A stretch of DNA of 53,600 bases from an uncultured Bacteroidales bacterium. GTDB taxonomy: Bacteria > Bacteroidota > Bacteroidia > Bacteroidales > F082. Position 1 is the first letter of the stretch. Each line of letters starts with the position of its first letter. The stretch is taken from positions 1 through 53,600 of the forward strand of contig CAMUYT010000001.1 of assembly GCA_947164955.1 (NCBI GenBank). The letters run 5' to 3'. Shown here one piece after another: positions 3,963 to 46,729 of this stretch. Made by a program: the position numbers and the translations under genes. Below the pieces are notes generated by a model that was not told the DNA's origin, searched no databases, and saw only the letters and a program-made list of their open reading frames with translations.

Positions 3963-3973
3963 ATTATTGAGTT

Positions 3974-10954: not shown

Positions 10955-10957
10955 AAA

Positions 10958-11569: not shown

Positions 11570-11612
11570 GTGACATCCGAAAATCTTCATTTTTGATACA
11601 GAGACCATGCAA

Positions 11613-11632: not shown

Positions 11633-11712
11633 GGTAGTTGGATTTTTGTTTTGATTTTTGCAAGTTGAAAAAATAGCATTGCATCAAAGCAACAATCAAA
11701 ACACATAATAAT

Positions 11713-19090: not shown

Positions 19091-19104
19091 TGCGTTTGCT
19101 GTTA

Positions 19105-22171: not shown

Positions 22172-22387
22172 TTGGAGGTCTGCTTGTTTATGAAATGCAA
22201 AAGTATGAAAAAAAACTCATGTAACTCACAAGTGCGAGAGGTGGCAAGGCCGAAAAATGCGTTATATTGCCATGAAAAAGGAAAATGGACTTTTTGTCAA
22301 AAAATCAAGCAAAAATCATTGTTATATTAAATAAATCACTATTTTTGAAGCGATAAAAATATAGTAATTAACTTTAAAATTTTGATT

Positions 22388-28300: not shown

Positions 28301-28753
28301 CCGATAGGGGAAATGTATTTTGCCGACTTCGGCGATATCCTTGATCAAGGTCGAGGCCTTATCATCAACTCGCAGGACGATGGCTTCGCACGCTATGAGG
28401 ACGACCTCTGGCAAGGCACGCTGAGCGAATTTGTGCCCGGCAAGATGTACAAAATCAAGGTTAACGAGGACTGTACCATTGTCGTCACCGTCGCGCCGGT
28501 CACCTCGACCTCCGTCACCATCGCGCCTGGCTTCAACTGGATGGGCTACACAGGTCCGGCTGGCCTCAGCATCGCCACGGCATTGGGAAGCTTCGTGCCA
28601 AACGAAGGAGACGAGATCCACGATGAAGACGGCATACGCATGGCTTCATACGATGGCGAAACCTGGTCGGGTAACCTGTTGCAACTCGTGCCTGGCAAGG
28701 GCTATCTCTATTATTCCAACGCTACTGAAAGCAAGACGCTGACGTTCGAGTAA
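22388..28753 (+). CDS. Giant BspA-like leucine-rich-repeat surface protein (about 2121 aa)
   Basis: The ATG at 22388 is preferred over the TTG at 22382. TATTTTTG -7 box at 22340-22347. The signal-like N-terminus is followed by three ~210-aa LRR super-repeats (TINS.AIA...FGNQVT.YT...I.DL.AW..I.F...Y.NPLYYA). Next comes a central region with FN3-like segments (TGYTATVSWTPA..., TTAYITWEPG...). A second LRR block covers about 27300-28150, followed by the shared C-terminal module. Confidence 0.9.
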   Translation: MKKLCKNQVINRCLMILVAVFCCLQTALAYDFSAVSPSGHTIYYNIVEGGYQIPRVSVTYPNTSESPWGNIQRPYGNLVLPETVTYNGTTYNVAYIGSKAFQGCAGLVSVVIPSCVITIEYNSFSGCESLTTVTINSASIAAGPYNSSYNLKNIFGNQVTSYTIGAVSTIGSCAFYGCTNLASVTLHHAILAIDNNAFYGCSNMYRVNITDLTAWLRINFVSKYSNPLYYAHNLYLNGTKITDLTIPNGVSTIKQYAFHGCSMTSVNIPNYTVTSIGNSAFESCSSLTSVYIGNSVTSIGENAFRGCTGLPSVFIPSSITVISAGVFRECSNLTSVDLPNGISQIGNNAFYNCSSLTDLVIPDEVPSTIGDYAFCGCSSLTSVTIPNTVNSIGNFAFSSCGSLTSVTINSNAIASLSYSELYNMKNKFGNQVTRYTFGSNITSIGQNAFYDCTGMAELILPSSLSSIGNNAFQNCSGLNRVLISDLNAWYEIDFANAYANPLYYANHFYVNTNEVVNLTVTSNISEIKDYAFVGYKGLHSVSIGYYVISIGNSAFENCSGLTSVTIGNSVNTIGDDAFKDCTNLTSVTLNNNAIASADYTSSNNLKTIFGNQVTNYTFGAIVYSIGKYACYGCTGLTSLTFPNTLQTIGLHTFNGCTSLTSVTLPSSVYFIDQSAFQGCSGLNGVVISNLAAWCAIDFGNAYANPLCYAKHLYLNNNEVINLTIPSSVSEIKDFAFTGSTGLHSVTFHSDVTSIGSQAFKNCTHLSALNIPSTITSIGEYAFENCSGMTSLTLPSNMSSISHGVFYNCTGLTEIHAGAMVPPVIAGSTTFGNVPTAIPVYVPLGSAPSYQAAQYWSRFTNYVGAIVPGDLTVTVPYEQEFYQSFIPSKWTSYEGQLVWNGSINKYTANLSTNVDHWYFGFVNGVFLSSHAWANIGNTNHAFWLVSPIMHLDGAYNMLSFDMALTQASGFLTPVTPGAQNNTRIFALVSTDHGLTWTKLEAWKHNTNTYSEIESLTPHGATFAYNLENYADQDIMVGFYVDCSNANDAYNRVHIDNFFVGEFDPSTPPTVAVDDITGYTATVSWTPAFAWQQGWDFYYKSEYDGVPYPNYASLETLQATGRFFHLTETSYALQNLTANTFYQVWVRHRDGSETGSWSSPLGFTTTSQCAPPKNPQVVTTQTTAYITWEPGQPNQTSWEIYVDPGWDMGEELEEPFFYMDGLTPGTAFEAHIFGHCTEGDGDSDPLYIEFSTDDYDHLTVNDGTYYNEFLVINGEETGSNNSKSQFIIPAEMLTEMQYSTIQKISFYSGQNGQPWGSSASFQVYMKEVDFFDFDAEGYCDDSFYDWDNLYQFNNTTLHIENGKMTIESGSGFGFHYTNGNLLIGIKQNWVGNNCQVAWYGVGTPNASPAMYEPSSYAPQCVQFLPKTTFAYEPDPYKPPTDFFAYPTSSNEVYFGWMPREGVTSYDIEVSWSPDFDEEEDQLLTGLEETDYTWIDIDYEYLFPSRTYYAHIRSHYVVDGTDHISSWSESFEFETLEACPVPTDLTATEVGNLIVELDWTETGDATEWVIAFQADGEVGERYLNTYHHPYYLEAPYLEPGTTYTVRIHPLCPNGGFVFCEPITFTTSSNIIFDDPAVKALCVASSTGWDTDRDGELSYTEAAEVTTLGDVFNNNDEITTFNELKFFTGLTSIVDHAFGGCGNLTSVVIPVGVTSIGTSAFSYCPNLTSVIFPEGLQTIGNYAFMYDFHLANIDFPESLITIGAQAFDHCTSLTYLFIPASVTYISYSTFIGCTGLEYVNVAPGNTVYDSRNDCNAIISTNYNELRVGCKTTMIPNTVTSIGTHAFRENTALTSIDLPESITAINDYAFLQCSGLNAITLPSSLTTIGKRAFRDCTGLQYITVEASTPPTLSTGSDDSFLGVDKTIPVYVLCDYMTDYYDINDSGTWGGFTNFIAIDCEQQSQVIALHQGWNWWAPIGEMYFADFGDILDQGRGLIINSQDDGFARYEDDLWQGTLSEFVPGKMYKIKVNEDCTIVVTVAPVTSTSVTIAPGFNWMGYTGPAGLSIATALGSFVPNEGDEIHDEDGIRMASYDGETWSGNLLQLVPGKGYLYYSNATESKTLTFE
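28265..28750 (+). other. C-terminal two-repeat module (second copy of the module at 16741-17178)
   Basis: Repeat 1: IALHQGWNWWAP...DDGFARYEDDLWQGTLSEFVPGKMYKI. Repeat 2: VTIAPGFNWMGYTG...NEGDEIHDEDGIRMASYDGETWSGNLLQLVPGKGYLY. Confidence 0.7.
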
Positions 28754-31907: not shown

Positions 31908-32663
31908 TCATCCGACAGGTTCTGTGGAAGGAATTACGGATGGCGTTTCTTTTCTGCCCTTACGGCGACGCAGTTTGGCGTTCTCGGCCCTGATTTGGGC
32001 GTCGACCAACTTGGCGAACGCGCCGTAGGTGGCGGTATCCTCGTTGCACTTGGCTTCAAGATGCACCACCAACTTCTGGTTGATGAGTTCTACGATCTCC
32101 TCTTTCAGGTCGGTGGCCGACTCGGTCTTGTCCTCCAAGATGCGCTGTTGGTATTCCAGCAGCTTCGTCTCGAACGACGACTCGGCGTCGCGCAGCTGGT
32201 CCACCGCCGTCTTCATGGTGTCTAACTCGTCAAGATGCACGGTCAGGTCGCCAGCCGACAGGCGGAGGAGCAACGATTGGATGAGAGCAGTCTTGCTCTG
32301 GTAGTTGCCAGCCTGTATTGCGGAGAGGTAGGTCTCGAACACAGGCTTCAAAGCAGTCCAATGGGACTGGATGTGCTCGTTGGGCAACTTGTCGTAACCC
32401 TTCTTGAGGTTGACCAAGGCGCTGACGCACCTCATGCGGTGCGCATCGAAGGTCTCCAAAGAAGAGATGAGACGGTTGTTCCTCAGAGCGTCGAGGATAC
32501 GGTCCGACAGGCCTCTCAGGTCTGTCATCACGTTGCGCAGATATACGTCTGCAGAGAGTTCTGTGCTGCGGCTTTCATAGATGCCGCACACGGTATGGGC
32601 GAGGCCCGCAACTTCGGCGACCTTCAGCCCTTGTAAAAGACGGAAATAATGATTTTGATTCAT
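31908..32663 (-). CDS. Hypothetical helical protein (251 aa)
   Basis: Start set at MNQNHYFRLLQGLK (ATG 32663-32661). The 129 codons upstream in the track ORF are R/P/G/A-rich and look non-coding. I recognise no family with confidence. Confidence 0.6.
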   Translation of the reverse strand: MNQNHYFRLLQGLKVAEVAGLAHTVCGIYESRSTELSADVYLRNVMTDLRGLSDRILDALRNNRLISSLETFDAHRMRCVSALVNLKKGYDKLPNEHIQSHWTALKPVFETYLSAIQAGNYQSKTALIQSLLLRLSAGDLTVHLDELDTMKTAVDQLRDAESSFETKLLEYQQRILEDKTESATDLKEEIVELINQKLVVHLEAKCNEDTATYGAFAKLVDAQIRAENAKLRRRKGRKETPSVIPSTEPVG

Positions 32664-33033
32664 ATAGAAAATTATTGTGACCGTCCTACAGGATTTACAA
32701 AAGAGATGAAAGGTAATGTCTTCCCGTGTATAGAAACGCGCCCTATCGGTCGGTATGTCACACAGGGGATTACTCGACGGAAAATGGCCACGCAAAGCGT
32801 TGGTTGGCTTTCCGTCACCGGAAAAATGGCAGACTGGGCTTTTTTCCGCCCATTTTCCACCGCCAAAAGGCGGAGCGGAGAAAAAATCGGCGTTTTTCCG
32901 CCGTCCATGGGCCAAGCCAAATGCAGGTTGGGCTTTTGGCGCGTGCCAATAGGCGGAGCTGGCGTTTTGTCTCCCCATGCTCGCTAAGCGAGGGCGTGAG
33001 GGTGCATCGCCTTTGGCAGGTTTCAAACAGGTA

Positions 33034-33552
33034 TTAAAGTGTAACATCATCGTCTATTGGTTGTTGTTCGGGTTCGTCTTCTATCGCAATGGTTTGTCTT
33101 ATAGTCGAGAAGTGCTGCTTCAGGCGTTCTTTTCGCCATCGGTCGTGCCTTAGTCGCTGTTCACATTGTTCTTCAAGTTGGGTGAGGCTGATGACCGCTA
33201 CGCCTCGTTTTTCGGCGTAGTGGCTTAGGAAGCCTTTGTTGGCCAACAGCACGAAGCCGTTCTCCTTGGCGTATTCCACTGCCATGAAATCGTGGAGGGT
33301 GAGACATCGGTGGTGTTCGCATTGGATGAATTTTTTGTGGATGTTGAGCATTTCGTCGTCGGAAGGGTTGATGTCGTTGATGTGACCATTCCGAATCAGA
33401 CTGTACAGACGCCGTTGTGTGTCAGAACTGAGCAGGGTAGAGGCCTTGTAAAGACTGAAGCTGTGGAGCGTATTTCTGGTGACCTTGGTCATTACGCTGA
33501 GGTCTTGGTCCAGCAGCATGGGAAGCAAATCAATAGAAACGATGATGTTCAT
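33034..33552 (-). CDS. Small protein, possible PIN-like fold (candidate toxin/effector partner of the XRE-ImmA gene)
   Basis: 172 aa, starting 3 nt after the XRE-ImmA stop. The N-terminal IVSIDLLPMLLDQ and later LHDFMAVEYAKENGFVLLANKGF are loosely PIN-like. The tail is acidic. The assignment is weak. Confidence 0.55.
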   Translation of the reverse strand: MNIIVSIDLLPMLLDQDLSVMTKVTRNTLHSFSLYKASTLLSSDTQRRLYSLIRNGHINDINPSDDEMLNIHKKFIQCEHHRCLTLHDFMAVEYAKENGFVLLANKGFLSHYAEKRGVAVISLTQLEEQCEQRLRHDRWRKERLKQHFSTIRQTIAIEDEPEQQPIDDDVTL

Positions 33553-33555
33553 TAG

Positions 33556-34659
33556 TTAAACGAATTCAAGTTGGTTAATGGTTTCCACCGCTTCGCCGAG
33601 CAGCGAGGCTGCTTTGGCGGGGGTGATGAGTTGGTTGCTGAGGGCTTGCAGCACGAGGGTGCGCAGATAGGTGGTGGTTTCGGGTTGCCAGAGGCTTTCG
33701 CGTACCCGCTCACGGAATTGTTCGTTGGTTTTCTTGTTTAGCTTGATGTTAAAGTGTTTTGAATAGGCATCGCTGATGATGCCGTGGAGGTGTGCCTTGT
33801 ACATGAGTGCCTCGATGGAGATGCCGTAGTCGCGCTGTAGGCCTTTCATCTCTTCGAAGGTGAGGCTTTGCCGGCAGTTTCCCAAGCGGACGAGCATCAC
33901 CGAGGTGGGGATGAGCATCTCGCTGGCGAATGCGTTGCAGAGTCGTTCGACGTCGGCGCCGGCCACGAAGTCGAGGATGAGGTGCGCCAGTTCGTGGAAC
34001 AGCGTGAAGCGCTTGCGCTCGGGCGTGTAGGTGGCGTTGAGGACGATCAAGGGAATCTTGTGGACGTCGTTGGCGCCATCGTCGGCTTTGCCGTTGGCCA
34101 TGGCGCTGGTGCCGTCGAATTTTTGTTCGGCTTCCACTTCGACGATGCGTACGCCGAGCGATTCAAGTAGTGCGAAGGGGGAGAATACGGGGCCGTTGCC
34201 CAGGTTGAGGGCCTTGCGCAGGGCGCGGGCCTCGGCTTCGGCTTGCAGGTGGGTGGCGACGGGCGTGCCGCCATGGTCGAGCAGGAAAGGTCGTTCGATG
34301 TGGCATACCTGCTCGATGTCGGTGATGCGTTCCATTTGATCGGTGGCGGCCTGTTGTATGGCCGCGATTTGTTTGCTGCCTAGGGAGGCCCGTTTGCGGT
34401 ACTCCCAGGCTTTCGGGGCGATGCTGACGGTGAAGGGCTGGTGGAAGTAGTCGACGTCCACGCCTAGGGCGAAGGCGAGAGCCGCCTCTATGGTTTCGGT
34501 CGGCATCATCTTGCCCGTTTCGTACTTGGCGATGGCGTTGGCTGTCACCACGAAGCCGATCCTCTCGCACAGCTCGCGTTGCGAGAGGCACCGCATCCTT
34601 CGCGCGTTGGCTAGGCGTTGCCCAAATACGTTGTCATTGCTTTCGTTCATTTTTCCCAT
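33556..34659 (-). CDS. XRE-family HTH fused to ImmA/IrrE-type zinc metallopeptidase (COG2856-like)
   Basis: HTH: FGQRLANARRMRCLSQRELCERIGFVVTANAIAKYETG. HEXXH motif in FTLFHELAHLILD. Confidence 0.85.
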   Translation of the reverse strand: MGKMNESNDNVFGQRLANARRMRCLSQRELCERIGFVVTANAIAKYETGKMMPTETIEAALAFALGVDVDYFHQPFTVSIAPKAWEYRKRASLGSKQIAAIQQAATDQMERITDIEQVCHIERPFLLDHGGTPVATHLQAEAEARALRKALNLGNGPVFSPFALLESLGVRIVEVEAEQKFDGTSAMANGKADDGANDVHKIPLIVLNATYTPERKRFTLFHELAHLILDFVAGADVERLCNAFASEMLIPTSVMLVRLGNCRQSLTFEEMKGLQRDYGISIEALMYKAHLHGIISDAYSKHFNIKLNKKTNEQFRERVRESLWQPETTTYLRTLVLQALSNQLITPAKAASLLGEAVETINQLEFV

Positions 34660-34948: not shown

Positions 34949-37900
34949 ATGGAACTGATTGATAACGTCACCAAGACGCTGCGCGATGACTTAACCGTGG
35001 AGATTAAGTCGGCAAGCAAGATTTCAATGGCTGCTTGCTGTTTCTCTATCTATGCCTTTCAGGAGCTGAAGGAGCAACTCAAAGACATCAAGGAGTTGAG
35101 GTTTATCTTCACTTCGCCCACGTTTACTGCCGAGAGAATCGACAAGCAAAGGCGTGAGTTCTACATCCCGCGCATCGACCGTGAACGCACCCTTTACGGC
35201 TCTCCCTTCGAAGTCCGCCTCCGAAACCAACTCACACAAAAAGCCATCGCTATCGAGTGCGCCGAGTGGGTCAAAAAGAAAGTCCGTTTCAAGTCAAACA
35301 TCACGAATAACACCCTCCCAGGATTCATCATTGTCGAAAACGACGACGCGCATACCTATACGCCTGTAAACGGCTTCACTACAACCGACTTAGGCTGTGA
35401 GCGCGGCAACAGCATGATGAACTTCGTCAACAAGGTGGATGGCTCAAACGCCCGTCAGTATCTCCGTGTGTTCAACGAGCTTTGGAACAACGACAAAGAC
35501 TTTGCCGATGTCACTGACGACATCATCGATCATATTTCCAACATCTATCGCGAGAACTCCCCGGAGTTCATTTATTTCGTTACCCTCTACAACATCTTCA
35601 ACGAGTTTCTTGAAGATATTTCCGAGGATGTTCTTCCCAATGAGGCCACTGGTTTCAAGGACAGCCAAATCTGGAACAAGCTCTACGACTTCCAAAAAGA
35701 CGCAGCCTTGGCCATTATCAACAAATTAGAGAAATACAACGGCTGCATCCTTGCCGACAGTGTGGGTCTGGGTAAGACCTTCACCGCACTGGCCGTCATC
35801 AAATACTACGAGACGCGAAACAAGAATGTCCTGGTGCTCTGTCCCAAGAAACTTTGCGACAACTGGATGACCTATCGCAACAACTACATCACCAATCCCA
35901 TCGCTGGTGATAGGCTTGCATACACCGTGCTTTTCCATTCCGACCTTTCGCGAGAAAGTGGCAAATCCAACGGCAACGACCTCGACAAAATCAACTGGGG
36001 CAATTTTGACTTGGTTGTGATTGACGAGTCGCATAACTTTCGCAACGGTGGCAAGCTTTCAAGGGATGATGATGACGACAACCCACGTGAGAACCGTTAC
36101 TTGCGCCTGATGAACAAGGTGATTCGTGCTGGCGTGAAAACCAAGGTGCTGATGCTCTCGGCCACACCTGTCAACAACCGCTTCAACGACCTCAAAAACC
36201 AGCTGCAACTGGCCTACGAGGGCGATACCAAGCGGATGGACGCACTGCTCAACACCAACACTTCAATTGACGACATCTTCCGCCAAGCGCAGAAGGCTTA
36301 CAACATCTGGGCAAAACTCCCCAACGAAAAACGCAACACCGAAAGGCTCCTTGGGATGCTCAGCTTCGATTTCTTCGAGGTGCTCGATTCGGTCACTATC
36401 GCCCGAAGCCGCAAGCACATCGAGGCGTATTACAACACCGAAGCCGTCGGCAAGTTCCCGCTTAGGCTTCCGCCTATCTCGCGTCGTCCGTCGCTCACCG
36501 ACCTTCCGTCGGCCATCAACTACAACGAAATTTTCAACCAGCTCCAAAAGCTCAACCTGGCCATCTACACACCTTCTGAGTTTATCTTGCCCAGCAAGAT
36601 GTCAAAGTATGCCCTCGACCCTGAGACACACGGCGCAGGACTTTCCTTGGTAGGCCGTGAAATGGGTATCCGTCGCATCATGTGCATCTTAATGCTGAAG
36701 CGTCTCGAAAGCTCCGTCAATTCTTTCCGGCTAACACTGACCCGTTTGCTGAAGCTCATTTCCAACACCATCGATACGATTGACCGCCATGAAGCTTATA
36801 TCAATGTGGAAGAGGTTGATGATTACGATTTTGATATTGAAGACTCCGACAACGATGCCTTTGTGGGCACCAAGAAAAACAGGATTGCCTTGGAAGACAT
36901 CGACTATATCAGCTGGCGGCAATACCTCCAGAGCGACAAGGAAGAGCTGGAGCTTACCCGCTTGATGCTCGACGACATCACCCCTGAGCACGACAGCAAG
37001 CTTCAGCAGCTCATTGCCGACCTTCGCGACAAGTTCGCTCATCCCATCAACGGCGAGAACAAGAAGGTGCTCATCTTTACAGCCTTCTCCGATACAGCCG
37101 TTTATCTCTACGACAACCTGGCCAAACCCATCAAACAGAAATACGGGATGGACACCGCTTTGGTCACAGGCGACGTGGACGCGCGTAGCACTTTGAAGTT
37201 GAAGGAAAAACTCGACTTCAACAAAGTGCTGACCCTCTTTTCGCCCATATCCAAGGAAAAAGAGTCCATCTATCCCAATATCCATGAGGAGATAGAAGTC
37301 CTCATCGCCACCGACTGCATTTCCGAAGGTCAGAACTTGCAGGATTGCGACTACCTCATCAACTACGACATCCACTGGAACCCCGTGCGCATCATCCAGC
37401 GCTTCGGTCGTATCGACCGTATCGGCTCCAAAAACGATGTCATCCAGCTGGTGAACTACTGGCCCGACATGACGCTTGACGAGTACATCGACCTCAAAGG
37501 CCGCGTTGAAGCTCGTATGAAGGTCTCTGTGCTCACCTCCACAGGCGACGACAATCCTATTTCTCCCGAAGAGAAAGGTGATTTGGAATACCGCAAGGCT
37601 CAACTGAAGAAGCTTCAGGAAGAAGTCGTCGACATCGAGGAGATGAATAACGGCGTTTCCATCATGGATCTTGGCCTCAACGAGTTCCGCCTTGACCTGC
37701 TGGAATATATGAAGACCCACGAGGATGTGGAGCATACGCCCTTCGGCCTCCACGCTGTTGTCGGCCACAACGAGTTCACCGAGCCAGGTGTCATCTTTGT
37801 GCTGAAGAACCGCAATAAAGGTGTCAACATCGACAAAAAGAACCGTCTGCATCCCTTCTATATCGTTTACCTTCGCAACGACGGCTCAGTGGTGGTCAAC

Positions 37901-38182
37901 CACCTATCGCCCAAGGAGCTGCTCGACAAATTCCGCAGCCTCTGCAAGGGAAAGAACATGCCTCAAACCGCTTTGTGTCGTGAGTTCAACAAGGAAACTC
38001 GTGACGGCTTCAAGATGGCACACTACTCCAAGCTGCTGGGCGATGCCATCAACAGCATCATCACTGTGAAGGAAAACAGCGACATCGACAGTTTCCTTGA
38101 AGGCGCTCAAGGCGAGCTGTTCACCAAGGAAATCAAAGGACTTGATGATTTCGAGCTGATATGTTTCTTGGTTGTAAAATAG
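34949..38182 (+). CDS. SNF2-family helicase with a ~190-aa non-helicase N-terminal domain (possibly degenerate PLD-like)
   Basis: Motif I LADSVGLGKTFTALAV, motif II LVVIDESHNFRN, motif III LMLSATPVNNRFNDL, and the C-terminal lobe LIATDCISEGQNLQDCDYLINYDIHWNPVRIIQRFGRIDRIGS. Confidence 0.9.
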   Translation: MELIDNVTKTLRDDLTVEIKSASKISMAACCFSIYAFQELKEQLKDIKELRFIFTSPTFTAERIDKQRREFYIPRIDRERTLYGSPFEVRLRNQLTQKAIAIECAEWVKKKVRFKSNITNNTLPGFIIVENDDAHTYTPVNGFTTTDLGCERGNSMMNFVNKVDGSNARQYLRVFNELWNNDKDFADVTDDIIDHISNIYRENSPEFIYFVTLYNIFNEFLEDISEDVLPNEATGFKDSQIWNKLYDFQKDAALAIINKLEKYNGCILADSVGLGKTFTALAVIKYYETRNKNVLVLCPKKLCDNWMTYRNNYITNPIAGDRLAYTVLFHSDLSRESGKSNGNDLDKINWGNFDLVVIDESHNFRNGGKLSRDDDDDNPRENRYLRLMNKVIRAGVKTKVLMLSATPVNNRFNDLKNQLQLAYEGDTKRMDALLNTNTSIDDIFRQAQKAYNIWAKLPNEKRNTERLLGMLSFDFFEVLDSVTIARSRKHIEAYYNTEAVGKFPLRLPPISRRPSLTDLPSAINYNEIFNQLQKLNLAIYTPSEFILPSKMSKYALDPETHGAGLSLVGREMGIRRIMCILMLKRLESSVNSFRLTLTRLLKLISNTIDTIDRHEAYINVEEVDDYDFDIEDSDNDAFVGTKKNRIALEDIDYISWRQYLQSDKEELELTRLMLDDITPEHDSKLQQLIADLRDKFAHPINGENKKVLIFTAFSDTAVYLYDNLAKPIKQKYGMDTALVTGDVDARSTLKLKEKLDFNKVLTLFSPISKEKESIYPNIHEEIEVLIATDCISEGQNLQDCDYLINYDIHWNPVRIIQRFGRIDRIGSKNDVIQLVNYWPDMTLDEYIDLKGRVEARMKVSVLTSTGDDNPISPEEKGDLEYRKAQLKKLQEEVVDIEEMNNGVSIMDLGLNEFRLDLLEYMKTHEDVEHTPFGLHAVVGHNEFTEPGVIFVLKNRNKGVNIDKKNRLHPFYIVYLRNDGSVVVNHLSPKELLDKFRSLCKGKNMPQTALCREFNKETRDGFKMAHYSKLLGDAINSIITVKENSDIDSFLEGAQGELFTKEIKGLDDFELICFLVVK

Positions 38183-38191
38183 GAGGTGTGT

Positions 38192-38791
38192 ATGCTCGGA
38201 TTGCCCAAAAGTACAGAAATAGCGAAGCAACTTCCCAAGAAGGCCATCTACGAGAAGTTCCAGCTGAAGTCTGCCCAGCGCGACCGCTTCGATTCCGATA
38301 TCAGCCGTATTGACATCGTGAATGTTGTTTCGCCCGACACGGTGCCAGGCTTGAAGGAAGGCGAGCATGTCAAGGAGTTTTATGTGTTGCTTGTCTCGCT
38401 GAAGCAAGAGCTGTATGACGAGAAAAACATCTTGCTTCTGTCAAAGTTAATCAAGCAGCACATGGTTTTTGCCTTGGTGTTTGAGGATATGTTGCGTTTC
38501 GCCGTGGTGCACGACAAACTCTTTTCCACTGACTGGGAACCGCTTGCCGATGCTGCGCTGCCCCTGATGGGTATTGACATGGACAAGGTATGGGAGCACA
38601 TAGTAACGACCATCGGAGGCTTCGAGGTGATGGAAGGCGTGACGATCGAGGAACAGATAACGATTGATGGAGAGAGGCTGAAAGTCATCAAGAAAATTGA
38701 AACGCTTGAAAAGAAAGTACGTTTAGAAAAACAGCCCAGAAGAAAACTGGAAATGTTCGAGGAACTACAAGAATTGAAAAAACAACTATGA
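38192..38791 (+). CDS. DUF4391-like protein
   Basis: MLGLPKSTEIAKQLPKKAIYEKFQLKSAQRDRF...EFYVLLVSLK matches my recollection of DUF4391 proteins found between helicase and methylase genes. The ATG at 38192 is preceded by AGGAGG at 38181-38186. The track start GTG at 38186 is an alternative. Confidence 0.65.
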   Translation: MLGLPKSTEIAKQLPKKAIYEKFQLKSAQRDRFDSDISRIDIVNVVSPDTVPGLKEGEHVKEFYVLLVSLKQELYDEKNILLLSKLIKQHMVFALVFEDMLRFAVVHDKLFSTDWEPLADAALPLMGIDMDKVWEHIVTTIGGFEVMEGVTIEEQITIDGERLKVIKKIETLEKKVRLEKQPRRKLEMFEELQELKKQL

Positions 38792-38792
38792 T

Positions 38793-39101
38793 ATGGAAAA
38801 AGTCCAACTGTCTAAGGAAGAAAAAAGAATACTAAAAGAAATAGCATCGAAAAAATACTCTAGCTCTACGCCTAAAAAAGATGTTGGAGTGATTAAACTC
38901 CTTGCGGTAAAGGATTTCATCCGAACAACAGATACTTTTGATGGTACGATTGTGATTGGCTTATCAGATTACGGAAAAGCATATCTTGAAGAAAACCCTA
39001 AACTTCATAATCCTAGCATATTCGACGACAAAAAATATATCATAAATACAATCATTTCACTTGTAGCCCTTACAGTGGCTATAATAGCATTATTCAAATA
39101 G
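38793..39101 (+). CDS. Small C-terminally membrane-anchored protein (102 aa), unknown function
   Basis: MEKVQLSKEEKRILKEIASKKY... with a C-terminal TM helix IINTIISLVALTVAIIALF. It is very AT-rich: 18/60 G+C in my hand count of 38801-38860. It lies 1 nt after DUF4391 and 3 nt before mod. Confidence 0.6.
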   Translation: MEKVQLSKEEKRILKEIASKKYSSSTPKKDVGVIKLLAVKDFIRTTDTFDGTIVIGLSDYGKAYLEENPKLHNPSIFDDKKYIINTIISLVALTVAIIALFK

Positions 39102-39104
39102 ACT

Positions 39105-40970
39105 ATGGAAAAACTCAACCTCCAAACCCACAACATCGTGGACGAAAACATAAAGAAAATTGCCGAACTATTTCCCAACTGCCTCACCGAGCGGCTGAAC
39201 GAGAAGGGGCAGCCCGAAGCGGCCATCGACTTCGACATGCTCCGCCAGGAGCTGTCGAAAGACATCGTGGAAGGCCCCACGGAACGCTACCAGTTCACCT
39301 GGCCCGACAAGCGCAACGCCATCCGGCTGGCCAACGCACCCACCACCGACACGCTGCGCCCCTGCCGTGAGGAAAGCGTGGACTTCGACAACACGCAAAA
39401 CCTCTATATCGAGGGCGACAACCTCGAAGTGCTGAAACTGCTCCGCGAGAACTACCTCGGCAAGGTGAAGATGATCTACATCGACCCGCCCTACAACACG
39501 GGCAACGACTTCGTATATAACGATGACTTTGACCAGGACAAGCAGGAGTATGTTCACAACAGCGGGCAGTACGATGAGGAGGGCAAACAGTTGGTAACCA
39601 ACACCGAAAGCAACGGACGTTTCCACACCGATTGGCTCAATATGATTTATCCACGACTGAAAGTGGCTAAGGACTTGTTGAGCGAGGATGGAGTGATTTT
39701 TATTTCGATAGATGATAATGAGCAAGAAAACTTGAAGAAGGTTTGTGATGAAGTGTTTGGTTCTCGGAATTTCATTGCTGAATTGGTTTGGGAACGGGCC
39801 TATGCTCCAAAGAACGATGCTCGATTTGTCTCTAACAGCCACGATTATATTTTGATGTTCGCTAAAAATATTGATGTTTTCGTGATAGGCAGGCTTGATA
39901 GGACAGAAGAAGCAAATGCAAGGTATTCAAATCCTGATAATGACCCACGCGGAGTGTGGAAGCCGAGTGATATTTCGGTAAAAACATATAACGCAGCTTG
40001 CGATTATCCCATAACGACGCCCTCCGGGCGTATAGTAGAGCCTCCAGCAGGGCGCTGCTGGAGTCTCTCTAAAAACTCGTTTTTAGAGAGACTCCAGGAC
40101 AACCGAATTTGGTTCGGTCCAAATGGTGATAGTGTTCCTTCAATGAAAAGGTTTTTATCAGAGTTGAAGTTTGATGGCATGGCACCGACCTCGATTTTGT
40201 TCTATAAAGAAGTTGGGCACAGTCAAGAGGGCGCAAAGGAAGTCGTATCATTGTTTGGCGATAAAGGCGTTTTTGATGGACCAAAACCTGTGCGTTTGCT
40301 CGAAAGACTTCTGACTTTAGCCAATTTATATGACGACTCAATTGTCCTCGATTTCTTTTCTGGAAGTGCCACAACCGCTCATGCTGTGATGAAACGGAAT
40401 GCTGAAAAAGACATGAATCTGAAATACATCCTCGTTCAATTACCCGAAAAAGTCAGTGAAAAGAAAAAAGACCAAGGCTTTTCCACCATTTGCGAAATCG
40501 GCAAGGAGCGCATCCGTCGTGCGGGCAAGAAGATCAAGGAGGAATCACCGTTAACCACACAGAATTTGGATACAGGCTTCCGTGTACTGAAGTTAGACTC
40601 CAGCAATATGCAGGATGTCTATTACCGCCCGGAGGACTCAACGGAGCAGACCCTGTTTGAGGACAACATCAAGCCCGACCGCTCGTCGGAGGACTTGCTC
40701 TTCCAAGTGATGCTGGAGTGCAACCTGCCGCTGTCCGCCAAAATCGAAACCGAGAAGATAGCCGGCAAGGAAGTGTTCTCCGTCAACGAGGGCTACCTCA
40801 TCGCCTGCTTCGACGAAAAGGTGAACGAGGACGTCATCAAGGAAGTGGCCAAACGCCAGCCCTATTACTTCGTCATGCGCGACAGCAGTATGGCCTCAGA
40901 TAATGTTGCAGACAATTTTGAACAAATCTTCCAAGCTTATAGCAAAGACACTATCAGAAGGGTTTTGTAA
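39105..40970 (+). CDS. mod: Type III R-M methyltransferase (Mod), N6-adenine beta-class
   Basis: Motif IV IYIDPPYNTGNDFVYNDDF lies upstream of motif I LDFFSGSATTAHAVM, which is the IV-TRD-I order. FISIDDNEQENL and FDGPKPVRLLERLL are also present. Confidence 0.9.
   Translation: MEKLNLQTHNIVDENIKKIAELFPNCLTERLNEKGQPEAAIDFDMLRQELSKDIVEGPTERYQFTWPDKRNAIRLANAPTTDTLRPCREESVDFDNTQNLYIEGDNLEVLKLLRENYLGKVKMIYIDPPYNTGNDFVYNDDFDQDKQEYVHNSGQYDEEGKQLVTNTESNGRFHTDWLNMIYPRLKVAKDLLSEDGVIFISIDDNEQENLKKVCDEVFGSRNFIAELVWERAYAPKNDARFVSNSHDYILMFAKNIDVFVIGRLDRTEEANARYSNPDNDPRGVWKPSDISVKTYNAACDYPITTPSGRIVEPPAGRCWSLSKNSFLERLQDNRIWFGPNGDSVPSMKRFLSELKFDGMAPTSILFYKEVGHSQEGAKEVVSLFGDKGVFDGPKPVRLLERLLTLANLYDDSIVLDFFSGSATTAHAVMKRNAEKDMNLKYILVQLPEKVSEKKKDQGFSTICEIGKERIRRAGKKIKEESPLTTQNLDTGFRVLKLDSSNMQDVYYRPEDSTEQTLFEDNIKPDRSSEDLLFQVMLECNLPLSAKIETEKIAGKEVFSVNEGYLIACFDEKVNEDVIKEVAKRQPYYFVMRDSSMASDNVADNFEQIFQAYSKDTIRRVL
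40058..40097. repeat. Perfect inverted repeat inside mod: CTGGAGTCTCTCTAAAAA-CTCG-TTTTTAGAGAGACTCCAG
   Basis: 18-bp arms and a 4-nt loop, verified base by base. It encodes CWSLSKNSFLERLQ in the mod frame. Confidence 0.95.
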
Positions 40971-42011
40971 ATGATGAAATTCAGTACCATAGAAGATTTG
41001 CAATCGTTGATTGACAACGAAATTGAGGAGTCCACTGAGTTGGAGTATAAAAGTACCTTTGTCAAGCAAAAACCAAATTGGAAGGAAGAATTGGCTAAGG
41101 ATGTCAGTGCTATGGCAAATGCAAATGGCGGGGTAATTGTCTTTGGAATTGCACAAAAAGAGTGCAATGGCCACTCAATTCCTGAAAAACTCACACCCAT
41201 ACCTAATACATTGATGTCAAAGGATAGTCTTTCTCAGTTATTATCCTCCAATATACAACCCGTTATTGAGAATTTAGAAATCTCGTTTATTCCATTCAAT
41301 GCAGAAACAGGTTTTTTTGTAATAGAAGTGCCACAAGGAATCACCGCGCATCAAAATAGATTGAGCCATTTGTATCATAGACGCAGGAATGCTACTATCG
41401 AACCAATGGAAGATTATGAAATCCGTGATGTGATGAACAGAAGCAAGCATCCTGTGATGGCTATCGAATTTGAGTTGCATAAAACAACAACTCATATCAT
41501 CGAAAAGCCTTTGAAAATAGCTGTGATGTATGACAAGCGTGAAGACAAACATACTATAGAAACCAAATACGAACTTAAATACAGGTTGTTGAATAAAGGA
41601 ACAGTGTACGCTAAATACATTAATTTCTTTATCCATGTTCCTTTAATCTTGAATCCAAATAAAGAAAAAGAACCTGAAGGGGTCGATAGGCTAAAGAAGT
41701 GTTTCGTTATTTCTGGCGACAATACTACAAGAGATATTACGTCTGTCAGGGGTCTTAGCAAAGAATATGGTCCTGCAAGATATGACCCAATTTTGCCAGG
41801 CACATTTGGCTGGTGGAAAAGTTTTGAATTGAGTTTTGATGACGTGGACGAATCCATTACCTTACCGCCTATTTGGTATTCCGTATTAGCCGACAATGCT
41901 CCCGAACGAAAAATGATTGTTGATTGGAATGACATTAAACTTTTTGAAAAAACAGAAACTATAACTAGAGATCTTAATAATATTGGATTTAATTCGATGC
42001 TTTATCAATAG
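40971..42011 (+). CDS. AlbA_2 (Schlafen-core-like) domain protein with an unknown C-terminal domain
   Basis: ESTELEYKSTF...LAKDVSAMANANGGVIVFGI is the hallmark of the AlbA_2/divergent-AAA family. It starts immediately after the mod stop. It is AT-rich: 19/60 G+C in 41221-41280. Confidence 0.7.
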   Translation: MMKFSTIEDLQSLIDNEIEESTELEYKSTFVKQKPNWKEELAKDVSAMANANGGVIVFGIAQKECNGHSIPEKLTPIPNTLMSKDSLSQLLSSNIQPVIENLEISFIPFNAETGFFVIEVPQGITAHQNRLSHLYHRRRNATIEPMEDYEIRDVMNRSKHPVMAIEFELHKTTTHIIEKPLKIAVMYDKREDKHTIETKYELKYRLLNKGTVYAKYINFFIHVPLILNPNKEKEPEGVDRLKKCFVISGDNTTRDITSVRGLSKEYGPARYDPILPGTFGWWKSFELSFDDVDESITLPPIWYSVLADNAPERKMIVDWNDIKLFEKTETITRDLNNIGFNSMLYQ

Positions 42012-42017
42012 TATACA

Positions 42018-42119
42018 ATGAAGTTCAAATTCAAAATACATCAACATCAGTCCAATTCGTCTGAAAGTGCCTCATCGTCGCTATCAAATTTAGTATCTTT
42101 GCCCTATGAAAACGATTGA
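42018..42119 (+). pseudogene. Relic of the res 5' end (33-codon ORF MKFKFKIHQHQSNSSESA...)
   Basis: 43 of the first 54 nt are identical to the true res start at 43691, and 12 of 18 aa match (MKFKFKIQQYQSDAVEST). The ORF then decays and stops at 42117-42119, overlapping the next gene out of frame. Confidence 0.75.
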
Positions 42120-43701
42120 CTATTATTTGAATCAGCCCGAAGGGCAGACCTACGACAAGAAAAGCGGTCGTATCGAGCCAAAGGCATTGGCGGTCACCAT
42201 GGTGGCTATGGCCAACGCCGATGGCGGAACCATTGCCGTCGGCATTGAGGATGACGGCACCGTCAGCGGCATCGACGGAATGACCGAGCACATCAACGAC
42301 TTGCTGCGTGTGCCGTTCGACTATTGCATCCCTTCGGTTAATATCCACCCTCAACGCATCCCCTGCACCGACAAGGACGGAAAGGACAACCACATCCTCA
42401 TTCTGGAGGTGGAGCAGAGCAGCGCCATGCACGCCACTTCTTCCGATGAGGCCTACTATCGTGTTGGCGACAAATCCAAGAAACTCTCCTTCGACGACCG
42501 TATGCAAATCATGCTGGCGAAAGGGGTGCAGTATTATGAAGATTACCCCGTTGCAAGAGCCACGGTTGATGATTTGGATTTTGACTTTGTTTCGAAGTAT
42601 TGCGAGAGGATTGGTTACAAGAAAGATGCGTTGACTTTTCTTCGCACCAACGGGGATTATATCCTGAACAAAGACGGCAAGGAACAAGTCAGTGGCGCTG
42701 CCATACTGTTGTTCGGAAAAGATCCACAGCGCTTTTTCCAACGTGCTTGGGTGCGTTTCATCCGCTATGATGGAACGGAAGAGAAAGTGGGGCGCGAGAT
42801 GAATGTCATCAAGGATGTCATCTTCAAGGGTCGTATCTTGGATATGACACGCGATGCCATCGCTTTCGTCAAGACACAAATCAAGGAACACACTTATTTG
42901 GGGCCCGAAGCACGTTTTGTGACAGAGGTGGAGTATCCCGAGTTTTGTTGGACCGAGCTGATTGTTAATGCCATAGCCCACCGCGATTACTCGATTCTGG
43001 GAACGGACATCCAAATCAAAATGTTCGACGACCACTACACGGTCGAAAGTCCTGGCATCTTGCCCGGGCGTGTCCGTATCAACAACATGCGAACCACCCA
43101 CTTCTCCCGCAACCCTAAGATTGCGGCTTTCATGAAAGAATATGAGTTCATCCGTGAGTTTGGTGAGGGTGTTGACCGTATGTATCGCGAACTGGAAGAA
43201 GGCGGATGGGAAAAACCTGTTTTCAAGCAGGATGACTTTATTCTTCGGGCATCACTCAAGTCAAGATTTAACACTGAGGGTTTACAGAAAGATTCAAACA
43301 AACAAACTGGAAGCCAAATAGATGACACAGATACTTTACAGAAAACTTTACAGAACAATCCAAATTCGATCCAAATCAACACTCAATACGTCACAAGCCT
43401 GTCCCAAGTCCTGTCCCAAGTTGTCCCCAGCTCGTCCCCAGCTTGTCCCCAGCTTAAAGACAGTCATTTTTCAATGATGGCCATGGTTATGTTGCAGCTG
43501 CATTCCCAACAATACTCAATATCTGAACTTATGAACGCTATTGGGGAAAAGAACAAGAACAGATTCCGCCAGTTTGTGTTAAGGCCTCTGATAAACATTG
43601 GCTTGGTTGAAGCTACCATCAAAGACGTTCCCAATAGTCCAAAACAACGTTATGCCCTTACGGGAAAAGGTAAAGAATTGATGAAGCCCTATGAAATTTA
43701 A
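42106..43701 (+). CDS. AlbA_2 + HATPase_c_4 (RecG-C-terminal-like) + wHTH protein, usually annotated as ATP-binding protein / putative transcriptional regulator
   Basis: AlbA_2: LAVTMVAMANADGGTIAVGIEDDGTVSGI. HATPase_c_4-like: ELIVNAIAHRDYSILGTDIQIKMFDDHYTVESPGILPG...FSRNPKIAAFM...EFGEGVDRMY. C-terminal PNSPKQRYALTGKG. It overlaps the res start by 11 nt. Confidence 0.8.
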   Translation: MKTIDYYLNQPEGQTYDKKSGRIEPKALAVTMVAMANADGGTIAVGIEDDGTVSGIDGMTEHINDLLRVPFDYCIPSVNIHPQRIPCTDKDGKDNHILILEVEQSSAMHATSSDEAYYRVGDKSKKLSFDDRMQIMLAKGVQYYEDYPVARATVDDLDFDFVSKYCERIGYKKDALTFLRTNGDYILNKDGKEQVSGAAILLFGKDPQRFFQRAWVRFIRYDGTEEKVGREMNVIKDVIFKGRILDMTRDAIAFVKTQIKEHTYLGPEARFVTEVEYPEFCWTELIVNAIAHRDYSILGTDIQIKMFDDHYTVESPGILPGRVRINNMRTTHFSRNPKIAAFMKEYEFIREFGEGVDRMYRELEEGGWEKPVFKQDDFILRASLKSRFNTEGLQKDSNKQTGSQIDDTDTLQKTLQNNPNSIQINTQYVTSLSQVLSQVVPSSSPACPQLKDSHFSMMAMVMLQLHSQQYSISELMNAIGEKNKNRFRQFVLRPLINIGLVEATIKDVPNSPKQRYALTGKGKELMKPYEI

Positions 43702-46700
43702 ATTCAAAATACAGCAATATCAGTCCGATGCGGTCGAAAGCACCGTTTCGGTTTTTGCGGGTCAGCCCTCGCGCGATGCTTTCCAATTTAGAAGAGACCT
43801 GGGCAAGCGCAAGTCTCAGCAGAAAATGGAATTCGAAGACGAATTTGTGGGCTACCGCAACAGCGACATCGAGCTGAGCGACCAACAGCTGCTCGACAAC
43901 ATCTGCAAGATTCAAGATGGTCAGGACATCAAGCAGTCGCCTAAGCTCGTCAGTGATTTAGGTCGTCTCGGGTTGGACATCGAAATGGAAACAGGCACGG
44001 GCAAGACCTACGTCTATATCAAGACCATGTTTGAGCTGAACAAACGCTACGGCTGGAACAAGTTCATCGTGGTGGTGCCGTCCATCGCTATCCGCGAAGG
44101 TGTCAACAAGAGCTTCACCATGCTCGAAGACCACTTTATGGAGCATTACGGAAAAAAAGCCCGTTTCTTCATCTACAACTCATCCAACCTCCAGCAACTG
44201 GATTCTTACTCCAGCGATGCAGGCATCAACGTGATGATCATCAACACGCAGGCCTTCGCCAAGGATTTGAATGAAGACAAGAAGACCAAGGCGGGCTTGG
44301 TAATCTACTCTGAGCGCGATGACTTCGGCAGTCGAAAGCCCATCGATGTGATTGCCGCCAACCGTCCTATCATCATCATGGACGAGCCTCAGAAGATGGA
44401 AGGCCAGGCCACCCAAAAAGCCCTGCGTCGCTTCAACCCGCTCTTTGTGCTCTATTACTCCGCCACCCACAAAACCCAACATAACTGCATCTATGCTCTC
44501 GACGCGCTGGATGCCTTCAAGCAGAAACTGGTCAAGAAGATTCAGGTGAAAGGCTTTGAAGTGAAGAACCTCAAAGGCACCAGCTCCTACCTCTATCTCG
44601 ACGACATCATCCTTTCCAAGAACCAGCCCCCAATGGTGCGCCTCGAAATGGAAGTGGAGACCAACTCAGGCGTGAAGAAAATCATGAAGAAATTTGGTGT
44701 AACTGACAATCTCTACCATGAATCCCATCTTTTGGAATACAAGGACTTCACCATTTCCGACATCGATGCTTTCCACAATACCGTCACTTTCCTCAACGGT
44801 GTGAAGATTGCCAAGGGCGAAGTGTATGGCGACAGCAGCGAAGAAGCCATGCAGCGCGTCCAAATCCGCGAAACCATTGCCTCGCATTTCGAGAAGGAAC
44901 GCGACTTGTTCAAACGGGGCATCAAAACCCTGTCGTTGTTTTTCATCGACGAAGTGGCCCACTACAAGAGCTACAACAGTGAAGGCGAAGAGGTGCATGG
45001 CCCGTTCTGGAAAATCTTCGAAGAGGAATATACCCGGATATTGAACGAAAACCTTTCCTTGTTTGAGGATGATTACCAAAAGTATCTCCTACAGTTCGAT
45101 GCCTCGCAAGTCCACAACGGCTATTTCTCCATCGACAAGAAAGGCCACGCGGTCAACAGCTCCACGGGGCGCGGCACCGACATTTCCGATGACATTTCGG
45201 CCTACGACCTCATACTGAAGAACAAAGAACGGCTGTTAAGCTTCGACGAACCAACCCGCTTCATCTTCTCACACTCCGCCCTTCGCGAAGGCTGGGACAA
45301 TCCCAACGTGTTCCAGATTTGCACCCTCCGCCATGCCGCCTCCGCCATTGCCAAACGTCAGGAAGTTGGGCGAGGCCTCCGCATCTGTGTTGACCAACAA
45401 GGCAACCGCATGGACTTGGAAGAGCTGGGTGATGAAATGGTACACGACATCAACAAGCTCACCGTCATCGCCAACGAAAGCTACAAGACTTTCGTGGCCG
45501 ACCTACAACGCGAGACCAAGGATGCCCTTCGTGAACGTCCCAACAAGGCCACTCCAGAGTATTTCCAAGGCAAGATGATCACTTTGGAGGGCGAGAAATA
45601 CACCTTGAACGCTCAGGATGCAATAGCTATCTGTGGCTGGCTGGCAGGGAACGATTATTCCGACGTGAACTACCAAATCACACAGACCTTTAAGGACGAC
45701 TTGCAGAACGGAACGCTGGAGCCAATGGGCAAGAAATTGGCCGGAAAGGAAGAACAAATCATCACGCTCATCAAAGCCCTCTTCGACGACAGCATCTCCA
45801 TCGAGGATATGATAGAGGACGGCAACGCATCAGCCGCAGCCACCAACCGCCTCAATGAGAACTTCAAAAAGAAAGAGTTCCAAGCCTTGTGGAATGAGAT
45901 TAACCACAAGTACGTCTATACCGTCCACTACGACAGCAACGAGCTGATAGAAAAGGCGGTTAACGCCATCAACGCCGAGCTGATGGTCACCGAATTGAAG
46001 TATGTGATGACCATTGGCGACCAAGAATCTGTTGACACCTTTGGTGATACCAAAACCACCACCCAGAAGTTGGGGACGGTAAGCACTTCCTCGGTGAAAT
46101 ACGACTTGGTGGGCGAGGTGGCCAAGCGCACCACGCTCACCCGTCGCACGACGGCCACCATCCTGAAGAAGATACGCCCCAGCAAGTTAGCCATGTTCCG
46201 CAACAATCCCGAGGAGTTCATCAAGAACGTGAGCCGTATCATCCGCAACGAGAAAGCCACCATGATTGTGGAACATATCCAATACGACCGCATCGACCAG
46301 ACCTACGACAGCGAAATTTTCACCCAAGAAAAACATTCGCAGAACGTGTCCAAATCATATTCCTCGAAGAAACACATCATGGACTACGTTTTCACCGACT
46401 CCGACGGAGAACGCACCTTCGCCGAGGATTTGGATGCCGCCACCGAAGTATGTGTCTATGCCAAGTTGCCGCGTTCCTTCCAAATCCCCACACCCGTAGG
46501 CAACTACGCCCCCGACTGGGCCATCGCCTTTAATCAGGGCGCGGTGAAGCACATCTTCTTCATCGCAGAAACCAAAGGCTCAATGGACTCAATGCAACTG
46601 AAGAAAGTGGAAGAGGCAAAGATTGGTTGTGCCGAAAAGTTGTTCAACAACCTTTCCACTTCCAATGTCCGTTACCACAAGGTGGATAGTTACCAGACCA

Positions 46701-46729
46701 TGCTGGATATAATGAAATCGATGGATTAA
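43691..46729 (+). CDS. res: Type III restriction enzyme Res subunit (helicase-nuclease)
   Basis: N-terminus MKFKFKIQQYQSDAV, Walker A METGTGKTYVYIKT, DEAH-like IIIMDEPQ, YSATH, REGWDNPNVFQI, and a C-terminal PD-(D/E)xK-like region YAPDWAIAF...FFIAETKGS. Confidence 0.9.
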   Translation: MKFKFKIQQYQSDAVESTVSVFAGQPSRDAFQFRRDLGKRKSQQKMEFEDEFVGYRNSDIELSDQQLLDNICKIQDGQDIKQSPKLVSDLGRLGLDIEMETGTGKTYVYIKTMFELNKRYGWNKFIVVVPSIAIREGVNKSFTMLEDHFMEHYGKKARFFIYNSSNLQQLDSYSSDAGINVMIINTQAFAKDLNEDKKTKAGLVIYSERDDFGSRKPIDVIAANRPIIIMDEPQKMEGQATQKALRRFNPLFVLYYSATHKTQHNCIYALDALDAFKQKLVKKIQVKGFEVKNLKGTSSYLYLDDIILSKNQPPMVRLEMEVETNSGVKKIMKKFGVTDNLYHESHLLEYKDFTISDIDAFHNTVTFLNGVKIAKGEVYGDSSEEAMQRVQIRETIASHFEKERDLFKRGIKTLSLFFIDEVAHYKSYNSEGEEVHGPFWKIFEEEYTRILNENLSLFEDDYQKYLLQFDASQVHNGYFSIDKKGHAVNSSTGRGTDISDDISAYDLILKNKERLLSFDEPTRFIFSHSALREGWDNPNVFQICTLRHAASAIAKRQEVGRGLRICVDQQGNRMDLEELGDEMVHDINKLTVIANESYKTFVADLQRETKDALRERPNKATPEYFQGKMITLEGEKYTLNAQDAIAICGWLAGNDYSDVNYQITQTFKDDLQNGTLEPMGKKLAGKEEQIITLIKALFDDSISIEDMIEDGNASAAATNRLNENFKKKEFQALWNEINHKYVYTVHYDSNELIEKAVNAINAELMVTELKYVMTIGDQESVDTFGDTKTTTQKLGTVSTSSVKYDLVGEVAKRTTLTRRTTATILKKIRPSKLAMFRNNPEEFIKNVSRIIRNEKATMIVEHIQYDRIDQTYDSEIFTQEKHSQNVSKSYSSKKHIMDYVFTDSDGERTFAEDLDAATEVCVYAKLPRSFQIPTPVGNYAPDWAIAFNQGAVKHIFFIAETKGSMDSMQLKKVEEAKIGCAEKLFNNLSTSNVRYHKVDSYQTMLDIMKSMD

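Follow-up and report, generated by a model that had tools for sequence, protein, structure and literature searches.

Restriction-modification (R-M) enzymes of Type III, such as EcoP15I and StyLTI, are encoded by a mod gene followed by res, and combine a β-class Mod methyltransferase, in which the DPPY motif precedes FxGxG, with a Res subunit composed of an SF2 ATPase and a C-terminal PD-ExK endonuclease. They hemimethylate a short asymmetric site, and for cutting they depend on ATP and on a pair of unmethylated sites in inverse orientation. In the Type III systems Eco86II and BspHIV an extra helicase-like ATPase is encoded 5′ of mod, and this ATPase is reported to be dispensable for methylation and to be missing from a DNA-cutting enzyme fraction (Murray et al. 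2021, PMC8259958). A second point of reference is MANTIS (formerly Gao_RL, BREX-related type 2), in which MtsD is a dimeric SauUSI-like PLD-SF2 effector with the catalytic residue H122; the system also contains a DUF499 ATPase (MtsA), a small DUF3780 protein (MtsB) and a hemimethylating methyltransferase (bioRxiv 10.64898/2026.09.23.753747; PMC12839542). Here we describe a locus within a 53,600-nucleotide (nt) stretch of DNA from an uncultured Bacteroidales bacterium (contig CAMUYT010000001.1, positions 1–53,600; hereafter the window), in which Type III mod and res genes are preceded by genes for a PLD-like/SNF2 ATPase (SNF2 below) and a DUF4391 protein.

The window locus shares with the canonical Type III enzymes the mod-res order, the motif order of Mod and the domain composition of Res, and differs from them in the PLD-like/SNF2 and DUF4391 genes added upstream and in two cargo slots. 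With the Eco86II/BspHIV type it shares an extra SF2 ATPase that lacks a nuclease motif and adjoins Type III mod and res genes, an arrangement present in hundreds of genomes, whereas the paper describing that type names no DUF4391 gene and its systems make N4-methylcytosine (PMC8259958). The resemblance to MANTIS lies in an SF2/SNF2-type ATPase that carries a PLD-fold domain at its N terminus, SauUSI-like as in MtsD, and in a four-gene methylation-based organization, MANTIS marking asymmetric sites on one strand. In contrast to MANTIS, no DUF499 ATPase and no DUF3780 protein are encoded at the locus, the PLD catalytic histidine (H122 in MtsD) is missing, and the nuclease is contributed by a separate Type III Res. 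The features that distinguish the unnamed four-gene variant, namely the gene order, the PLD-like N-terminal domain of SNF2 and a DUF4391 gene directly after it, are all found in the window. A PADLOC run, which the original prediction for this DNA had proposed as a check, assigns Mod and Res to Type III, and no library places the SNF2 and DUF4391 proteins in a characterized system; the accompanying claim that the SNF2-DUF4391 pair belongs to no named system is borne out, PADLOC having no model that matches DUF4391 and NCBIfam no equivalog for any non-R-M gene of the locus.

The core of the system was defined from 80 loci, fetched via a DUF4391 alignment from species-representative genomes, whose open reading frames (ORFs) were scored with the window proteins. 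The hosts include Bacteroidales, Clostridia, Alpha-, Beta-, Gamma- and Deltaproteobacteria, Chlorobi, Lentisphaerae, Chloroflexi and others, with the loci closest to the window coming from Bacteroidales metagenome-assembled genomes. SNF2 is present in 68 of the 70 loci with sufficient upstream DNA, Mod lies downstream in 61/62 and Res in 49/51. A constant core of SNF2, DUF4391, mod and res, in that fixed order, is essentially universal. In many loci all four genes are closely joined, by gaps or overlaps of 4 nt, and many carry no cargo (for example L044, L066, L075 and L084, the last of these at 3154–12215 of the E. coli plasmid pLAO18). In most loci DUF4391 follows SNF2 at a distance of −1 to 32 nt, and nowhere are these two genes far enough apart to accommodate slot-type cargo (>1 kb). 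Extra DNA is confined to two positions: slot 1, between DUF4391 and mod, where more than 300 nt are inserted in 35/62 loci, and slot 2, between mod and res, which contains extra DNA in 32/57. Slot cargo varies by locus and is drawn largely from defence families, including AAA_21/AAA_15 plus RloB pairs, PARIS AriA, AbiLi, Septu PtuA, ThsB/TIR, SIR2 (with HerA in L091), Fic, RhuM and TPR proteins. At 90% identity the DUF4391 family falls into 4444 clusters and at 50% into 967, and the system occurs in Escherichia coli CFT073, so that the supposed rarity of the arrangement does not hold: SNF2-DUF4391-Mod-Res is an unnamed Type III R-M variant that is common rather than rare.

Mod (621 residues; 39105–40970, + strand, as are all genes of the locus) matches the PADLOC MTase_III model over its full length (1.2e-237) and Pfam N6_N4_Mtase, and has the β-class order of an N6/N4 methyltransferase, with DPPY at residue 127 and FSGSA at residue 418. 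Res (1012 residues; 43691–46729) matches PADLOC REase_III (3.6e-296) and Pfam ResIII and RE_endonuc, and contains the ATPase motifs GTGKT (102) and DEPQ (231) followed by a C-terminal PD…ETK signature (941). Judged by these motifs and family matches, Mod and Res make up a complete Type III enzyme, as had been predicted. The window Res scores 378 bits against the NCBIfam StyLTI-type model, under the cutoff of 564, and the Res of the E. coli members carries the NCBI StyLTI-type model name. In the window, as in 49/51 related loci, mod stands 5′ of res on the same strand, whether or not cargo separates the two genes. Two tandem mod genes stand ahead of res in L093–L095, L052 and L060. Positions 40058–40097, inside the window mod (Mod residues ~318–331), form a perfect inverted repeat of 19 nt with 2 nt between the arms; the repeat recurs in mod of L003 and L004, the two closest relatives, and is lacking in the other loci.

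The SNF2 protein (1077 residues; 34949–38182) contains the Pfam Helicase_C and SNF2-rel_dom domains, and its best PADLOC match is C3a139 ‘HKD+Snf2’ (1.5e-124), end to end, presumably the RL/MANTIS model. The motor motifs GLGKT (273), DESH (359), SATP (404) and QRFGR (817) are kept in at least 90% of 70 homologues, while the C-terminal ~230 residues are uncharacterized. The motor is preceded by an N-terminal extension formed by residues 1–245 (nt 34949–35683); an extra N-terminal domain had been noted before, its length put at ~190 rather than ~245 residues. This domain has no Pfam family, and a sequence search of PDB chains returned coiled-coil or cullin noise; its mean column identity across phyla is 71%. 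It was modelled with AlphaFold2 to an overall predicted local distance difference test score (pLDDT) of 71, with 85–95 in the core, and a Foldseek search with the model found SauUSI (7clg) as the best match (E 4.5e-5, probability 1.0), followed by the NgoAVII R protein, BfiI, PLD3, Tdp1 and phosphatidylserine synthase. In the model, then, the N-terminal domain is a PLD fold, closest to SauUSI and NgoAVII, which revises the statement that no recognizable PLD nuclease is encoded here. The catalytic tripeptide is another matter: no HxK is present in the entire window SNF2 protein, and the equivalent strand reads x-F-[K/R]-S-N across homologues with a variable residue at the His position. Of the features of a MANTIS-type effector, the PLD-SF2 architecture and the fold are present, whereas the window protein has no HxK and the family does not conserve one. 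Because the catalytic HxK is missing, the PLD module is probably inactive as a nuclease.

In L091 (456–1589) a 377-residue protein is observed in which a PLD-like N-terminal domain is fused straight to DUF4391, the SNF2 motor being deleted; the fusion is followed by SIR2 and HerA (DUF87), embedded ahead of mod and res. Either this locus has decayed, or the fusion hints at joint action of the N-terminal domain and DUF4391.

The second core gene encodes a protein of 199 residues (38192–38791) with its ATG positioned 9 nt past the SNF2 stop. Described earlier as DUF4391-like, it is a bona fide member of PF14335 (1.5e-29, 104 bits against a cutoff of 29.9). The AlphaFold2 model (pLDDT 89.5) is composed of an α/β domain (residues 1–125) and, C-terminal to it, a long helical hairpin whose tip carries a conserved EKQP. 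A Foldseek search of this model against PDB and viral structure libraries gave no significant match; the best matches were to Hjc-type and viral nucleases (E ~0.04–0.06, TM-score ~0.2), at which level a PD-ExK reading is not claimed. The sequence searched against PDB chains returned coiled-coil or cullin noise, and 111 relatives scanned against Pfam at E ≤ 1 matched PF14335 alone, with no tie to DUF3780 or other families. No conserved catalytic constellation was found in the protein, and the literature on DUF4391 yielded nothing meaningful.

Outside the loci fetched through DUF4391, the system was traced in complete E. coli genomes, plasmids and phages. The CFT073-type system is found in 54/5426 complete E. 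coli genomes, including CFT073, ABU 83972 and NCTC9022, and in uropathogenic E. coli 26-1 it is located in the leuX island. For this type the counts of res and of SNF2-DUF4391 are equal (54 and 54) and the identity classes are identical. A further 25 E. coli genomes contain a divergent NCTC9966-type version, and nine E. coli plasmids a third. The SNF2 N-terminal domain is present on 116 plasmids of PLSDB (Listeria 20, Enterococcus 18, Bacillus 15, Escherichia 14, Acinetobacter 11), with the four-gene layout in all three plasmid loci examined, and it is matched in five phage or phage-like records.

Type III enzymes related to that of the window are also found alone. StyLTI-like mod/res genes are present in ~280 E. 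coli genomes, compared with 88 that have the window-type SNF2, and in the two loci examined (L089 and L090) mod and res form a pair that stands alone at an asn-tRNA island. In the Res identity matrix the NCTC9966-type enzyme is 47% identical to the stand-alone enzymes and 35–37% identical to other SNF2-linked Res proteins, while the window, CFT073-type, Listeria and Acinetobacter enzymes form a second group at 42–67%. This grouping indicates that Mod-Res is able to exist without the upstream module and that the module was gained or lost more than once; the existence of related Mod-Res enzymes on their own makes SNF2-DUF4391 a putative accessory module. A second kind of motor was found at the same place in L092 (3482–13635; E. 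coli 2018-10-2CC), where a small helix-turn-helix (HTH) gene, a DrmD-like SNF2 gene and a gene for a GmrSD-like DUF262/DUF1524 protein precede Type III mod and res. The L092 SNF2 (951 residues) is DrmD-like by PADLOC (1.6e-221) and has no PLD domain, and the locus has no DUF4391. The presence of two unrelated SNF2 motors at the same place upstream of Type III genes suggests a general benefit of joining a translocase to a Type III enzyme. The Eco86II/BspHIV ATPase of PMC8259958 may be of the DrmD-like SNF2 type found in L092, rather than of the window family.

We therefore read the locus as a functional Type III R-M system of a conserved four-gene variant, in which SNF2-DUF4391 serves as an accessory motor unit and extra genes are accommodated in two slots; on balance we consider this probable, though not firmly so. 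The model predicts that a Mod2Res complex recognizes a short asymmetric site and methylates one strand of host DNA, as in canonical Type III, and that it cuts unmethylated DNA through the PD-ExK nuclease of Res. SNF2 and DUF4391 would be co-produced and would act as one ATP-driven translocase on double-stranded DNA without nuclease activity of its own, with DUF4391 as an adaptor of SNF2 and the degenerate PLD domain mediating dimerization or clamping of DNA. The pair is predicted to help the Type III complex act on invading DNA and not to be needed for basic methylation or cleavage; by driving along or clearing the DNA track between sites it may allow restriction where passive sliding fails. 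Candidate contributions are at unfavourable site geometries, in the clearing of roadblocks, in countering anti-restriction and in guarding self DNA.

Several points weigh against this reading. The role of SNF2-DUF4391 is drawn from architecture, the four-gene family being known here from its genes, and a contact between the pair and Mod or Res is a proposal. The modelled DUF4391 fold yielded no functional clue. The inactivity of the PLD module follows from the missing motif, and the extreme conservation of the N-terminal domain could instead reflect a non-canonical activity. That the seven genes of the window form a single operon is read from their spacing, and a promoter and terminator scan of the locus, not built for Bacteroidota, stayed at chance level. 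Finally, the 88 E. coli genomes in which blastn detects an SNF2 homologue do not include NCTC86, the Eco86II host, whose genome is part of the searched collection.

A bolder form of the same idea is that the nuclease-dead PLD/SNF2 protein and DUF4391 produce a dual-motor Type III enzyme able to cut at single or same-orientation sites, or past roadblocks and anti-restriction, in which case the family would be a mechanistically new class of ATP-dependent R-M system and also a major defence-gene hotspot. We regard this as rather unlikely.

The pair could alternatively be a defence or anti-plasmid system of two genes, complete in itself, which shares an island and a promoter with a Type III R-M system in the way that other defence genes are embedded in R-M loci, a possibility we consider unlikely. 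It would fit the stand-alone Mod-Res relatives, the tolerance of the loci for unrelated defence genes and, if the Eco86II ATPase belongs to the same family, its dispensability there (PMC8259958). However, the association and its order are near-universal across phyla and one-to-one in the E. coli counts, cargo changes between loci while the SNF2-DUF4391 pair never does, and the pair has no recognizable effector, its PLD domain lacking HxK and DUF4391 lacking a catalytic signature.

Just as doubtful, in our estimate, is a role in modification or self-protection, in which SNF2-DUF4391 would either place Mod on host DNA or activate it there, or else remove Res from self DNA once the DNA has replicated or the system has been acquired, by analogy with MtsA and MtsB of MANTIS. 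The order of genes (ATPase, small protein, methyltransferase, helicase-nuclease) does parallel that of MANTIS, which also hemimethylates asymmetric sites (bioRxiv 10.64898/2026.09.23.753747), and the DthLIII and FnoB1III Mods need Res for methylation (PMC8259958). The parallel weakens at the level of the individual proteins, as DUF4391 has no similarity to DUF3780 or other families and SNF2 resembles the effector MtsD, not the loader MtsA; moreover, Mod alone methylated fully in the tested systems with an extra ATPase (PMC8259958).

The original prediction took all seven co-directional genes of the window as one system. Its account of the layout agrees with the ORF coordinates, the intergenic distances being 9, 1, 3, 0 and 94 nt with the last pair overlapping by 11 nt, but across the ~80 loci four genes are constant, and the remaining three (g3, g5 and g6) fall into the two variable slots. 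The slot 1 occupant g3 (38793–39101; 102 residues, 33% GC) has no Pfam, PADLOC or NCBIfam match. Its homologues form eight clusters at 50–91% identity and, wherever flanks exist (four contigs, 2/8 clusters), lie between DUF4391 and mod of the same system. A hydrophobic C-terminal helix is probably a membrane anchor, and we read g3 as a lineage-specific small accessory protein, not a mobile passenger; in the preferred mechanism it would likewise be such an accessory. Slot 2 contains g5 (40971–42011; 346 residues, 37% GC), which matches Pfam SLFN_AlbA_2 (1.8e-14) and has no PADLOC match, and g6 (42106–43701; 531 residues), which contains AlbA_2, HATPase_c_4 and a Fic-like C-terminal winged helix in Pfam and matches a prokaryotic Argonaute-associated (pAgo-associated) PADLOC model (2e-40). 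These Schlafen/AlbA_2 identities had not been made previously. Homologues of g5 occur in slot 2 of two other loci only (L011 and L018), and g6 has a close homologue in one locus (L009), where it immediately precedes res. g5 and g6 are interchangeable slot 2 passengers, which in the proposed mechanism would be independent defence genes using expression from the operon.

The history of slot 2 is recorded in the 94-nt gap before g6, where, as noticed earlier, a relic of the res 5′ end is found (42018–42105, + strand, ~29 codons). The stretch 42018–42067 is 82% identical to the res start at 43691–43740, and the relic translates as MKFKFKIHQHQS... compared with MKFKFKIQQYQS... at the start of Res. 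An 11-nt sequence, GCCCTATGAAA, is positioned at 42101–42111, at the junction of the relic end and g6 start, and again at 43685–43695, at the g6/res junction, so that its two copies bracket the g6 cassette. The relic has 36% GC, similar to g5, and g3, g5 and the relic together span 33–37% GC compared with 47–51% for the core genes. The low GC common to g5 and the relic points to the relic having moved together with the g5 cassette, recording a cargo exchange at the res start, and the two GCCCTATGAAA copies with the low-GC res relic joined to g5 suggest that such exchange proceeds by recombination at the res 5′ end. An obligatory system of all seven genes is consequently very improbable: the tight spacing, the common strand and the constant slot of g3 homologues would agree with it, but g5 homologues occur in two and g6 homologues in one or two of ~80 loci, cargo is missing altogether from many of these loci, the GC content of g3, g5 and the relic is low, the relic marks a past rearrangement, and the compact four-gene loci L044, L066, L075 and L084 contradict it.

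A divergent class 1 DISARM is barely credible, since what is shared (an SNF2 ATPase with an amino-methyltransferase, and partial-stretch matches of SNF2 to the DrmD model NF038317) is outweighed by a DrmD score of 145 bits against a cutoff of 610, by the absence of DrmA, DrmB (DUF1998) and DrmC from the seven genes and of DrmA and DrmB also from their neighbours, and by a β-class Type III Mod accompanied by a Type III Res. The original comparison with DISARM was right in concluding that the locus is not DISARM, although the analogy is weak and the nearest PADLOC family is ‘HKD+Snf2’. The remaining multi-gene systems were rejected as the same system. For Hma (PMC11232893), the HmaA model gives a partial motor match on SNF2 (3e-21), and the DUF3883 nuclease of the HmaA C terminus and the HmaC ATPase are missing; for MADS (bioRxiv 10.1101/2023.03.30.534895), a system whose motif is bipartite and Type I-like, no signature genes of the mad6-mad8 type are found at the locus. 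BREX PglZ phosphatase and BrxC ATPase gave no matches at the locus or its flanks, and the BREX-related systems (PMC12839542) and the systems of a domain-centric E. coli screen (PMC13069673) were also set aside. Embedding of defence genes has been described for Hma, BREX, DISARM and Type I R-M, with Type III not covered (2024, bioRxiv 10.1101/2024.01.29.577857). The loci described here share with those systems co-oriented variable cargo at fixed positions in a multi-gene system and differ in where the slots are, between DUF4391 and mod and between mod and res.

The upstream side of the system is variable. No conserved upstream regulator was found among the loci, a ~300-residue HTH gene occurring in a subset of them only. 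Right upstream of SNF2, the E. coli versions have either a small HTH gene, named mads1 by NCBI in one case, or an HTH/WYL-type regulator of ~300 residues (L087 10249–10413; L086 10156–10335; upstream side of L001 and L002). The window has no co-directional upstream regulator of the HTH or HTH/WYL type. Divergent from SNF2 on the − strand (31908–34659) are genes for an HTH_3 plus Peptidase_M78 (ImmA/IrrE-like) protein, a family-less 172-residue protein and a DUF6261 protein; the M78 gene (33556–34659) has 59% GC, unlike the R-M genes, and the genes at this divergent position vary among related loci.

Downstream, the system is bordered by the convergent housekeeping genes speA, miaA, cca and clpB, and no tRNA or integrase marking an island was found in the window. 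Elsewhere in the window, a − strand cluster at 17189–22171 encodes an SF1 helicase (AAA_11/AAA_12), a family-less 504-residue protein and a dGTPase-like HD plus HD_assoc protein, and may be a separate defence-type cluster. Giant ORFs are positioned at 11713–17181 and 22382–28753, encoding a protein of 1822 residues with no Pfam match and one of 2123 residues that is a BspA-type leucine-rich-repeat/fibronectin surface protein. Type IX secretion system (T9SS) sorting domains are also found in the window and, with the Bacteroidales origin of the closest loci, indicate that the host DNA is a Bacteroidales chromosome of rumen or gut type.

Type III R-M has been treated as a solved two-subunit paradigm, against which a four-gene form with a second conserved motor is now seen across phyla, on plasmids of Listeria, Enterococcus, Bacillus and E. 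coli and in the model uropathogenic strains CFT073 and 83972. Annotation pipelines and defence finders name half of this four-gene system. A role for SNF2-DUF4391 would inform the use of multiple ATPases in methylation-based systems (BREX, DISARM and MANTIS) as well as the function of DUF4391. With the two cargo slots, defence-gene discovery through ‘guilt by embedding’ becomes applicable to Type III loci, and if the Type III complex does work with two motors, these loci would be a major, unexploited hotspot of defence-gene embedding across gut Bacteroidales, Firmicutes and Proteobacteria.

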